In this document: positions 31,852 to 35,240 of the stretch, piece by piece
Layout of the letters: each line of letters starts with the position of its first letter
Numbering within the stretch: position 1 is the stretch's first letter
NCBI GenBank assembly: GCA_010093705.1
Contig: MU006092.1
Location: 68,623-132,622, forward strand
Length of the DNA stretch: 64,000 nucleotides
From: Patellaria atrata CBS 101060
Taxonomy: Eukaryota
Reading direction: 5' to 3'
Notes under the pieces: generated by a model
Database searches by the model: none
What the model saw: only the letters and a program-made list of their open reading frames with translations
Told to the model about the DNA's origin: nothing
Position numbers and translations under genes: made by a program

Positions 31852-32833
31852 TCTCCAAAATTACCCGCCCAGTCCTGAAAAAGTAAGATAAATGAGACTT
31901 GGTGTCACGAATGTGTTTTTTTCGAGCTCCGCAAACGTTGATCACGGATGGCAAGCAAGTAATGTATATGGAAGGTTGATCTAGAACGGATATTCAGGAA
32001 GCAGACTGCTCAAGGAAAGTTGTGACAATCATGGAGGCCAGGATGCTGGACATGATTGATTCTCGACATAGAGCGCTATCGCTAGTTAATGAGCATGAAA
32101 TCCAGGTGGTGAAATTATGCTGGAGGAGGGAAGGATAGCAGTAAGTGAAGGGCAAAAAGTAAAAGTAAGAGGGACGAGGTTTCTGGTTGTCGACTTCGAC
32201 TATTGAGCTGTCAAACCATGGGATCACGGTGCGGGCCACGGAAGGGGTACAGGTGGAAAAGTGAGGCACTAGCCACCTGATCAGAGAAACTTATATCCTC
32301 TTTTCCGCAGACCTAGACAAACGAAAAAATGGTAAGCTGGAAAGCTGGAGGAAGCGTAATATCTATAATAGCGAAGAGAGGTATAAAAAAAAACCGCTTT
32401 GCGTGGGAGACTAACCTGGAACTGAAGTGGTAGTGGATGAGGTTGTGGTATTGGGGTGCCTTTGCGGTACAAAAGTTGATTCTTTGGGTACAGTAAGGTA
32501 GAAACCACTTCCGACGAGATTTTCCGCTCCGGTATAATTCTTCCAAAAATGGCAAGATACCACATCTAGTGACTTGTGGCTCTTGCTTAGGTAGTAACCG
32601 TGGCTGGTGCTCTACATATCTTAGACCAACCTAACTTAACTTGGGTTAGGTCTTGTATCGCTGACTACTTTACGATCTAAGGCTTTTATTGTTCAGGTAC
32701 CTTATACCTTACATTGAATCCTCACTTTCTCTGGCATCAATCATGCAATTATATTCTACTTTCACATAGATTGACAGCATTCTCAGGATTTTACCCTCTC
32801 AATCAAACCCATCTGGGCAACTAACCCGCTCAT

Positions 32834-33914
32834 ATGCATCGTTTCCAACGAGGCCCAGGATATTCTGGTCCCTCGAAAGCTTCACCTTCCACTGTGTGTC
32901 AAAAATGCTTGAAACGAGATATGTCATTCCTGGACCATAAACATGATATGCAAACTGACCTCAATTTTACGACACTACAGTTATGAATGTAAGGCTACAA
33001 TCCAGGATCGGCCGTATGTGTCGCGACCCTCGCGCAGTCAGCAGCTTGCGAATCCCAAGCTAGTACCCCAGCTGAACAGCGATATTCCCAACGAATTATT
33101 ACGAAAGTAAGATTTCCTGCTCGAGTAAAACAATTCTCCCTCTCACATCTTTCGTAGGAATGGTATTGCAGACGAAGAACTGGCCAAGATAGCGGAGGAA
33201 CGTGGCCGAAAGCGTAGTCGGGAAGACGAAGATGCATCTCCTCCACCCCAACGGAAACGCTCGAGATCTGCCTCATCATACTCTTCCTCGTCCGTGTCGA
33301 CAATTTCCACCAATCATTCTAGATCGCTATCTCGGGATATTGAGGACACTTACATGACCTCGCAAAGGACCGATTTCTTACCGGCAAAACCACAGAATGG
33401 CTATGGCAAACGTAGGCGATCTAGGTCATCATCTGTGGACTCATATACCTCGTACAATTCACGTGACGAGAAACGTGAAAAAGATTCAGACAGGAATACC
33501 AGAAGAAGGATGAGCTCATATAGCCCCGGGGCACGAGGTCGCCGAAGAAGTAGGTCTTTGACATCCAATGTACGACACAGGGTCCACTACAGAAGTCGAA
33601 GCCCGTATAGAGCTACTACCCGCCACAACGACGCTCCACGGGGTATAGGCAAACGTGTATCATCCCCAAAACGCAGAGACGGTCGACCCAGATCACGCAT
33701 GCGGTTTCGCTCCGGTTCTAGAAGTCCTTATAGGCCTAGAGGAAGTTCGAGATCAACGACTCCGGTACACCGATCTAAAGATACAAATCAGGACCGGAGT
33801 ATAGCCCCTAACATTCATCAGCGGCAAAACCCCTCTGCAAAACCGAAGGAGAGAAGTTTGAGTCCCTTCAGCAAACGCTTGGCTCTGACCCAAGCGATGA
33901 ACATGGAAAGATAA
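32834..33914 (+). CDS. ZCCHC10-like CCHC zinc-knuckle protein with an RS-rich tail; exons 32834-32918, 32971-33106 and 33158-33914 (first intron AT-AC)
   Basis: Spliced CQKCLKRGHYSYECK..RPYVSRPSRSQQL.NPKL; RS-rich region; terminal RSLSPFSKRLALTQAMN. Confidence 0.85.
32919..32970 (+). other. Non-canonical AT-AC intron (52 nt) with U2-type signals
   Basis: 5' end ATATGT, branch ACTGAC at 32954-32959, 3' end TTTTAC. Removing it gives G|GA CAC = Gly-His and completes CX2CX4HX4C. Confidence 0.8.
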
Positions 33915-34392
33915 ACAAAGTCACATAATTCGCGGCGTTTTTGGTGTTCGATAAGTCTGGAATGGCCTTTCTTGATACCCATCTTCTGGCGATTTCATTT
34001 TGGATTTGTAAAAGTAGCTATCTGTCTCCACGCGTTTCCACGTAGCGCCTCTTCTTCGATGCCTTCTAATTCGCTCGAACTATGTAGTTCTACGTCATCT
34101 GGAGAGCCAGAGCTATCGAAGGACAGTGCATCAAGTGTCTCCTCAGTACTAAGCAACATGACCTAAATAATTCTCTGCAACAGCGCATGGAAGTTTTCTT
34201 CACAGTACTCGCAACATAGCACAACGTCACCCCTCCAACGCGACCTCGGCTTCGCATTTGCCTCATCAGAGTGTCATATCATGTCATATCGACGACCTCC
34301 TCAATTCAGTTCTTGTTGCGGACGCTTCCTTTGTTTGAAACCTTTTCAGCGCTTGTGACATGCAGTCACTTTGTTTGGTAGATAGTTAATAT

Positions 34393-35037
34393 TCATGAAT
34401 TCTCTAAATTGAATTCCCGTTCCAGCTCCCGCTCCCTCCTCTCATCTTCCTCTTCCTCGCGTTCCCGCACATGCATGGCCTCAACCAAATCTATCCCTGC
34501 CATTCCCGGTGCCTCTTCTTCTTCTCCACTTGCGCCGTCTGTCTTTTTCTCCCTCGCAGCGTTTTGCGCAGCTTCCACCCTCTCCCTCACCATTCTGGCA
34601 ATAGCATTGTCAGTCCTCACATTCAGAACCTCTAGTTTCTTGTTGAGGTCCCTCTTCAAATCCCAATTAGGCTTTTTGGGCTGTAACTTGAACAGATCTA
34701 ACGGTGCATTCCCTTTCTCTTCTTTCTCAGCCTCAGCTTTCGTCTGTGCCGCTATAGCAGCAGAGCGCTCCTCGAGTGTTTCCTGACCAGCTGACGGCGC
34801 GTTCTCAAAACCTAGTTTCGGACCACGGGTCGCTATATCATAATTTCGGCCGGAAAGGTAGGTCGACGTCACATCTGGAGAAGGGGATTTTGCGGGTTGA
34901 GCTTCTGCATTAGCAGTGTCTCTATCGGCTCCGGCGTCTTGCGAGCTGTCTGGTTGTTTCCGTTTCAATGATTTGAGCTTTGCGAGGCGGGCTTTTCGCT
35001 CTTGAGCGGCAGCATCAAGCGAGGCGTGAGAATTCAT
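34393..35037 (-). CDS. cwf18: Pre-mRNA splicing factor Cwf18 (CCDC12 family)
   Basis: SLDAAAQERKARLAKLKSLKRK, LSGRNYD and DLFKLQPKKPNWDLKRDL..KLE.L..RT.NAIA. Confidence 0.92.
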   Translation of the reverse strand: MNSHASLDAAAQERKARLAKLKSLKRKQPDSSQDAGADRDTANAEAQPAKSPSPDVTSTYLSGRNYDIATRGPKLGFENAPSAGQETLEERSAAIAAQTKAEAEKEEKGNAPLDLFKLQPKKPNWDLKRDLNKKLEVLNVRTDNAIARMVRERVEAAQNAAREKKTDGASGEEEEAPGMAGIDLVEAMHVREREEEEDERRERELEREFNLENS

Positions 35038-35240
35038 CCTGACGGGAGGTGGTGATGTCTTAACCTTTTTTGAATTGCTACCTTTCGGTTGGGATGTGGT
35101 TGAAGATATGAGCGAGCGCACAGACCATCTACATTCTGTTCGGGGAAGCTCCGCATGGCGCGTCTATCATAAAATTCACCTCCATTCACACCGCCCACGC
35201 TTATGTCTCTCACCATGGCCCGATGAATATTTGACTTTCC

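Follow-up and report, generated by a model that had tools for sequence, protein, structure and literature searches.

Can a fungal gene depend on an intron that begins with AT and ends with AC and, if so, which spliceosome would remove it? We asked this question of a zinc-knuckle gene of Patellaria atrata CBS 101060 (a Dothideomycete, order Patellariales) that lies in the 64,000-nucleotide stretch of DNA analyzed here (GenBank assembly GCA_010093705.1, contig MU006092.1, positions 68,623 to 132,622 of the forward strand; this whole stretch is the window, and all positions below follow its own numbering). The codons of the knuckle are separated by a 52-nt segment at 32919-32970, and a first-pass annotation made from the letters alone had proposed that this segment is an intron with AT-AC termini and major-spliceosome signals. 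Our analysis indicates that 32919-32970 is very probably a genuine AT-AC spliceosomal intron that is removed by the major (U2-dependent) spliceosome. We infer the splicing in P. atrata and the type of the spliceosome from the sequence itself, its conservation, its signals and its effect on the reading frame, all of which are presented here, and from a junction that is in print for an orthologue.

Removal of the AT-AC segment completes a zinc knuckle

We joined the exons by their coordinates and compared what each splicing choice would encode (the features are placed in Table 1). Removal of 32919-32970 connects the first exon, which ends with ...TGT CAA AAA TGC TTG AAA CGA G, to GA CAC TAC AGT TAT GAA TGT (HYSYECK... 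from 32973) and yields an open protein of 325 aa with a complete CX2CX4HX4C knuckle; the joined reading stays open to the stop codon when intron 2 is also removed. Retention of the segment leads to an in-frame TGA. The complete knuckle on removal and the TGA on retention had both been claimed in the first-pass annotation, whose coordinates proved exact to the base. The observation that an AT-AC segment bridges the codons of the knuckle is confirmed. The only GT-AG alternative, in which 32923-32980 would be removed, also remains in frame; as had been noted before, its joined product (...CQKCLKRDIYECK) has no His ligand, as it is deprived of Gly-His-Tyr-Ser and reads KRDIYEC. This means that the complete CX2CX4HX4C set is present in the AT-AC reading only and is missing both in the GT-AG form and in the annotated model. 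On a custom hidden Markov model of 40 intact orthologues, the AT-AC-spliced product scored 150.7 bits, the GT-AG form 127.5 and the annotated model 108.1 (Pfam scores given below are, by comparison, those of public protein models).

A search with the exon-2 peptide returned 101 fungal proteins at E<=1e-3, every one of which carries Pfam PF13917 (zf-CCHC_3), and among the best 120 of the 1399 proteins matched in a profile search one homologue is named 'zinc finger CCHC-type containing 10'. A search of solved structures gave just weak matches to generic CCHC knuckles (E >= 0.039). The gene is a ZCCHC10-like (PF13917) zinc-knuckle gene with an Arg/Ser (RS)-rich tail. The N-terminus encoded by exon 1 agrees with the pattern of the orthologues (M[NH]R[YF]...SKA..T.CQKCLKR), and the C-terminal motif RSLSPFSKRLALTQAMN is conserved in them as well.

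The gene already has a public model, P0004, a hypothetical protein of P. atrata CBS 101060 that was found as a 100%-identical match. It has 306 aa in place of the 325 of the corrected product, begins MICKLTSILRHYSYECK... at an ATG that lies within the AT-AC segment (32943) and has neither exon 1 nor two of the zinc ligands. Could this model be correct, with the upstream CQKC stretch being noncoding? P0004 is the deposited model and is still above the PF13917 threshold (38.8 bits, cut-off 27). However, it covers profile positions 15-41 of 41 only, where two of the four zinc ligands are not included; the intact orthologues P0011 and P0006 reach 69 bits over positions 2/3-41. Furthermore, 79 of the 80 orthologous loci described below have kept the protein sequence of the upstream Met...CQKCLKR frame, while the interior of the intron is not conserved, and intronless orthologues encode the knuckle contiguously. 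We consider it highly improbable that translation starts at this ATG.

An error of sequencing or assembly could also have turned an ordinary gene with GT-AG termini into an unusual one, as AT-AC and GT-AG are two bases apart, and the first-pass annotation had named a misread 32919 and 32970 as a way in which its proposal could fail. Contigs built from two public DNA runs, with word depths of 321 and 452, cover 32600-34100 and agree with the window throughout: there is no differing letter, insertion or joint. Moreover, the identical termini recur in 62 orthologous loci from many samples, and the D...R signature of the same intron shows up in public models from other species (see below). An error in the letters is therefore virtually out of the question.

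The intron and its termini are conserved across fungal classes

Next, we compared orthologous DNA. Metagenome contigs were scanned for relatives of the gene, and in the best 80 of 429 the CQKC and HYSYEC exons were located by a script. In 62 of these 80 loci a complete AT-AC intron was present at the identical phase-1 site in the Gly codon, and one further, partial locus (L040) ends with ...AC. Three loci (L059, L072 and L075) have an AT-AA intron, 13 have no intron and the state of one (L047) could not be determined. A GT-AG intron was found in 0 of the 80. Thus, the alignment of orthologous loci, which the first-pass annotation had suggested as a check, came out in favor of conserved AT..AC termini at the same codon phase.

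The 62 AT-AC loci were assigned to lineages by tblastn to the nearest of 60 named references. At 40-100% identity, and therefore as a rough guess, 23 were Lecanoromycete-like, 23 Leotiomycete-like, eight Eurotiomycete-like, five Dothideomycete-like, two Xylonomycete-like and one Geoglossomycete-like. Sordariomycetes are represented via protein signatures and via Fusarium graminearum, and they appear to share the AT-AC intron. By parsimony, the intron and its AT-AC termini would be older than the split of these classes. The named proteins among the best 120 of the 1399 profile matches all come from filamentous ascomycetes.

The orthologous intron of F. graminearum has been seen to be spliced. 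The protein P0074 is FGSG_10073 of F. graminearum PH-1, whose model reads ...TER-HYSYEC, whereas a newer F. graminearum model, P0073, has an intact knuckle. In the RNA-seq and RT-PCR study of this species, supplementary file 4 lists for FGSG_10073 an AT-AC intron of 52 nt (738569-738620, supercont3.7, minus strand), supplementary file 8 includes the gene among seven with primers for confirming non-canonical sites, and the seven non-canonical sites (Figure 7A there) were all confirmed by Sanger sequencing (PMC3577648). This supports the earlier claim that the AT-AC segment can be removed by splicing.

As for what is new, the type of intron was known, and the Fusarium intron stands in a supplementary table; the conservation across classes is new in the literature that we searched. 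In this literature (on AT-AC introns of fungi and Pezizomycotina and on ZCCHC10) we found no account of the cross-class conservation of this intron, nor of systematic mis-annotation, terminal covariation or AT-AA variants.

The signals are those of the major spliceosome

Which spliceosome would remove the intron? We compared 42 distinct intron sequences (40 AT-AC and two AT-AA, the window included). At the 5' end, A at +1, T at +2 and G at +5 are invariant, +3 is A in 37 and G in five, and +6 is T in 40; at the 3' end, -2 is always A, -1 is C in 40 and A in two, and -3 is C or T in 41. Position +4 is mixed (A in 16, T in 18, G in six and C in two), and so are +7 to +9 and -4 to -9. The donors are ATATGT (18), ATAAGT (11), ATGAGT (five), ATAGGT (four), ATACGT (two) and ATAGGA (two), a set that corresponds to the fungal consensus GTRNGT with the first G replaced by A (AT[AG]NGT). 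A CTRAY branch motif was recognized in 40 of the 42 (CTGAC 24, CTAAC nine, CTGAG four, CTGAT three). It is followed, after the branch A, by 10 nt in nine sequences, 11 in 25, 12 in five and seven in one, i.e. by 10-12 nt in 39 of 40. The introns are 46-61 nt long.

In contrast, no sign of U12-type signals was detected: 0 of the 42 start with ATATCC and 0 contain TCCTTRAY. The U12 5' site /ATATCCTT does not occur here, as the window reads ATATGTCA, nor does the U12 branch TCCTTAAC at ~10-15 nt from the 3' end. With GAG/ATATGT and CTGAC in the window, the view of the first-pass annotation that donor and branch are of the U2 type and not of the U12 type holds. The intron has AT/AC ends, a 5' site that follows the U2-type consensus pattern except at +1 and a U2-type branch, which are the features of the type II (U2-type AT-AC) introns defined by Sheth et al. 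(2006) as having a U2-type 5' site apart from +1 (PMC1557818). Furthermore, two surveys report that Ascomycota have neither convincing minor introns nor the minor snRNAs (PMC10639083, PMC2846911), which agrees with the earlier statement that most ascomycetes have no minor spliceosome. A scan of the whole 64-kb window with Rfam gave 0 matches at the gathering thresholds.

Intron 2 of the same genes served as a control for the branch spacing. Its distance from the branch to the 3' end is ~10-18 nt, wider than the 10-12 nt of the AT-AC intron, although this control is rough and indicative only (some 3' ends were over-extended, 23 loci were called as having no intron 2 and eight had no anchor motif). 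The narrow spacing of 10-12 nt may reflect a distance-based choice of a 3' site that is not AG.

Public gene models of the homologues

If the intron is conserved, gene predictors that take only GT-AG or GC-AG should fail at this site in other species as well. Among the 101 homologue models, the knuckle ...K[RK]GHYSYEC is intact in 40 and not intact in 61, and in 56 of the 61 defective models Arg stands directly before His. In 13 models the intron is kept in frame, and all 13 read CQKCLK[RK]-D......R-HYSYEC. The Asp after Lys/Arg indicates a G/AT start, because a GT intron would give Gly there; similarly, the Arg before His indicates a C/GN end, because an AG end would give Gly. In another 14 models, which begin in the +1 frame or pass through it, the reading is ...RYV..., corresponding to G/ATATGT. 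The His is absent altogether in three models (P0035, P0037 and P0078). Of these, P0035 (KRDNFEC) fits the use of the cryptic GT/AG pair, as judged from its protein sequence, while P0037 and P0078 merely start just ahead of ...YEC.

We checked this signature rule at two loci where both DNA and protein were at hand. The DNA of the window agrees with P0004, and the locus L057, which is AT-AC in DNA, is 100% identical over 266 aa to P0026 of Hyaloscypha finlandica, a partial model that starts LR-HYSYEC. The signature was seen in Helicocarpus, Emmonsiellopsis, Ascosphaera, Glutinoglossum, Claussenomyces and Hyaloscypha, and also in many Trichoderma, Fusarium, Claviceps, Tolypocladium and Ophiocordyceps; for Trichoderma reesei it is the model P0048 that shows it. 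The concern of the first-pass annotation that GT-AG-only annotation would mis-model the gene was thus justified, both for the P. atrata model, which starts in the intron, and for a conserved gene that is mis-modelled in most of the sampled fungal models (61/101). A remedy in annotation would be to permit AT-AC at this Gly codon.

Intron loss and variant termini

The loci that deviate from AT-AC show which changes the site tolerates. The 13 intronless loci (L029, L030, L031, L035, L038, L044, L070, L071, L073, L074, L076, L077 and L079) read ...K[RKF]GHY[ST]... contiguously, with no codon extra or missing when compared to the removal of the AT-AC intron, as would be expected from copying an AT-AC-spliced mRNA. 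Are these loci spliced transcripts rather than genomic DNA? Intron 2 is still present in at least five of them (L029, L035, L044, L073 and L076), and the contigs that hold L038 and L074 are 80.6 and 27.8 kb long, which indicates that the intronless loci are genomic and that the intron was lost precisely. Near-identity between an intronless and an intron-bearing locus was not seen (best crude identity 0.65-0.79), so none of the former can stand in for a spliced AT-AC transcript. L074 and L077 are nearest to Pleosporales references (77-78% identity). Separately, we observed that both introns are absent in L038, L074 and L077.

The three AT-AA loci come from three samples and hold two intron sequences, one shared by L059:1116-1250 and L072:395-529 and another in L075:1201-1335. 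Their flanking exons are intact, and they are nearest to Leotiomycete references, in two lineages. Judging by their DNA, they would be natural U2-type AT-AA introns, if spliced. At the protein level, P0101 and P0103, two models in which an intron at the site is retained, read Gly...Gly there, which corresponds to an intron with a G start and a G end. The nearest match of P0101 is Ramularia collo-cygni (72% over 94 aa), and the three named relatives, from Fulvia, Dothistroma and Ramularia, have correct models, in keeping with a GT-AG intron. Judging by the protein reading, a Mycosphaerellaceae-like lineage would have changed both termini, from AT-AC to GT-AG. The mixed pairs GT-AC and AT-AG were found neither among the 42 distinct introns nor among the protein signatures. 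The terminal states seen are A/C, G/G, A/A and precise loss.

Origin of the intron and possible regulation

We then asked where such an intron could have come from. The first-pass annotation had suggested the relic of an ancestral U12-type AT-AC intron whose signals were lost together with the minor spliceosome and whose termini were kept. The AT-AC termini are indeed ancient and fixed, and two further features are compatible with this origin without being diagnostic of it: the intron is in phase 1 close to the 5' end of the gene, and its branch-to-3' spacing is tight (10-12 nt in 39/40). U12 introns have a similar constraint on this spacing. On the other hand, the choice of a non-AG 3' site by distance would predict the same spacing just as well, the U12 motifs ATATCC and TCCTTRAY occur in 0/42, and a double change (G>A and G>C) in an ordinary intron explains the data equally well. 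Conversion from U12 to U2 type is a documented fate of minor introns (PMC2846911). We also compared the gene with minor-intron sources, as had been suggested, and ZCCHC10 was not found in the parts covered of the supplementary tables of PMC6865273, PMC11347168 and PMC10639083, so that this is a weak negative; for PMC11347168 the sole match was ZCCHC8, tabulated among responsive introns. The relic origin has gained no support so far, and we regard it as unlikely.

Could the intron instead be a switch? In this case, the use of either the AT-AC termini or the cryptic GT(+5)...AG(+10) pair would be regulated and would produce knuckle-intact and knuckle-dead isoforms, or the intron, being hard to splice, would act as an autoregulatory sensor for a protein associated with the spliceosome. 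The cryptic pair preserves the frame in 36 of 43 distinct intron-bearing sequences, and retention leads to a premature TGA. In addition, spectra of human ZCCHC10 were found only in the catalytic C complex of spliceosomes (PMC3923134), so that feedback via an intron sensitive to the second step of splicing is conceivable. However, both halves of the cryptic pair have a simpler source. The AG at exon-2 +9/+10 belongs to an AGY serine codon, which is found in 8/11 intronless orthologues as well as in 38/43 intron-bearing ones, and every U2-type 5' consensus includes the GT at +5/+6. Moreover, the outright loss of the intron in 13 of the 80 loci means that it is dispensable in several lineages. 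The isoform switch, also an idea of the first-pass annotation, is thus without support so far, and we think it quite unlikely that the choice of site is regulated in either manner.

Proposed mechanism and persistence

How would the major spliceosome process such an intron, and why would its termini persist? The 5' site is the GTATGT consensus but for A at +1, is preceded by exonic GAG and would be recognized by U1 and U6. The branch would be a standard CTGAC, whose A lies 12 nt before the intron end. During the second step, A(+1) and C(-1) would take the place of the two terminal guanines of an intron, which usually make a non-Watson-Crick contact, and the joining of CGA G to GA CAC would create Gly-His, and with it the third ligand of the knuckle, in a 325-aa product with an RS-rich tail. 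The persistence of the termini could be a mutational trap, in which the intermediates that lie a single step away, GT-AC or AT-AG, would splice poorly and from which the only ways out would be precise loss of the intron (the 13 loci) or a double change to G...G (as in the Mycosphaerellaceae-like lineage). Yeast genetics, where a change of the first base can be made good by one of the last, implies that GT-AC and AT-AG should impair the second step, and the terminal states that we observed are those that a two-base fitness valley predicts. At the level of sequence comparison, the terminal pattern is natural covariation evidence for a contact between the first and the last base.

Several points weigh against the reading of the segment as a conserved U2-type AT-AC intron. 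The junction 32918^32971 in P. atrata is deduced. Both DNA runs were made from a single sample and may be the very source of the assembly, from which they are therefore not independent. The 80 loci include many near-duplicates, which reduces the independent evidence to the 42 distinct introns, and the lineage assignments are only as good as the nearest-reference approach allows. That this genome has no U11, U12, U4atac or U6atac would follow from the published surveys of Ascomycota, on which the statement depends. The AT-AA introns in two lineages mean that the last base is not absolutely fixed. Finally, the trap is an argument from reasoning and not a test.

Taken together, the data could be read more boldly. 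The intron would be one of the oldest known U2-type AT-AC introns, with A(+1)/C(-1) fixed since before most classes of filamentous ascomycetes radiated; its termini, sensitive to the second step, would serve as a sensor that couples the production of a homologue of a C-complex protein to the performance of the spliceosome; it would possibly be the last trace of a U12 intron; and the A...C, G...G, A...A series would represent an evolutionary experiment on the contact between the first and the last intron base. We regard this combination as unlikely.

The locus may be of use both to the annotation of fungal genomes and to questions of splicing and intron evolution. The rare U2-type AT-AC class gains dozens of natural variants with invariant +1, +2 and -2 (n=42), and the terminal partners seen (A/C, G/G and A/A only), together with the fixed spacing, make a comparative set on the choice of non-AG 3' sites. 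A non-canonical terminal pair can persist across fungal classes, with an exit via precise loss or a double switch. The gene also provides a concrete locus for asking whether ascomycetes keep converted minor introns. Lastly, membership in the ZCCHC10 family, whose human member was found in the C complex only (PMC3923134), makes autoregulation a testable idea.

Layout of the gene

The features of the gene are collected in Table 1. Downstream of it, at 34393-35163 on the minus strand, there is a Glu/Lys/Ala-rich stop-to-stop open frame of 256 aa, probably a neighbouring gene.

Table 1. Positions of the exons, introns and splicing signals of the ZCCHC10-like gene (32834..33914) in the window
Feature	Position	Strand	Details
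Exon 1, coding part	32834..32918	+	From ATG 32834-32836 to the first base of the Gly codon; product MHRF...CQKCLKR, in full MHRFQRGPGYSGPSKASPSTVCQKCLKR; supplies the first two Cys ligands of the knuckle
AT-AC intron (intron 1), probable	32919..32970	+	52 nt, phase 1, splits the Gly codon
Intron 1, 5' site ATATGT	32919-32924	+	A32919, T32920; exonic GAG just before
Intron 1, putative branch CTGAC	32955-32959	+	Branch A 32958, 12 nt before the intron end
Intron 1, 3' end TAC	32968-32970	+	Context TTTTAC; A32969, C32970
Cryptic in-frame GT-AG pair	32923..32980	+	GTCATT...CAG, 58 nt; GT 32923-24, AG 32979-80
ATG inside the AT-AC intron	32943..32945	+	Start of the public protein model P0004
TGA met in the exon-1 frame on intron retention	32984..32986	+	Open reading frame 32825..32986
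Exon 2	32971..33106	+	GA finishes the Gly codon, then HYSYECKATIQDRPYVSRPSRSQQLANPKLVPQLNSDIPNELLR, then a partial Lys codon
Intron 2, ordinary GT-AG	33107..33157	+	GTAAGA...TAG, 51 nt
Exon 3	33158..33914	+	Arg/Ser-rich tail ending ...SPFSKRLALTQAMNMER; stop TAA 33912-33914

Comparison with known systems

Finally, we asked how this intron compares with AT-AC introns described before. The closest case is the FGSG_10073 intron, which lies in the orthologous gene, is also AT-AC and is also 52 nt long, and whose position, to judge from the R-His signature, would be the same. It differs in that it is one row in a list and in that its host belongs to the Sordariomycetes, whereas the host here is a Dothideomycete; the parts of that report considered here do not mention the knuckle, the conservation in fungi or the type of spliceosome (PMC3577648).

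U12-type AT-AC introns share the terminal dinucleotides and the short, fixed distance from the branch to the 3' end. They differ from the intron described here in their 5' site and branch (0/42 here), and in that this intron is found in a phylum reported to be without minor snRNAs.

In animals, type II introns are very rare: human has 15, mouse six, fly three and worm none, and with none in Arabidopsis the total is 24 in ~610,000 introns of the five model species (PMC1557818). Their metazoan consensus is /ATAAGT (Gould et al. 2016, PMC5029451). Those of SCN4A and SCN5A are conserved from human to pufferfish (PMC1557818) and resemble the intron described here, being AT-AC introns with a U2-type 5' site that have been conserved for long. 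In contrast, the intron described here resides in a lineage without the minor spliceosome, is ~50 nt long, has the fungal CTRAC branch, is conserved across several fungal classes and splits a metal-ligand motif. U2-type AT-AC introns had also been hypothesized in fungal xylanase genes (PMC1557818).

Yeast provides the precedent for AT-AC splicing in a fungus that has no U12 system. An engineered actin intron with A1 and a last C is spliced there (Parker and Siliciano 1993, as reported by PMC5029451 and PMC1557818); the first base and the last thus make up for one another (PMC5029451, PMC1557818), and G1>A is rescued by G>C at the last base (PMC1557818). The nested AT-AC intron of RPL30 in Saccharomyces cerevisiae is a natural example; it is found in ~1-2% of transcripts, is unlike the U2 5' consensus and is dispensable for the protein (PMC5029451). 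Unlike the RPL30 intron, the intron of the ZCCHC10-like gene has a near-consensus 5' site, and its removal is required for a functional reading frame.

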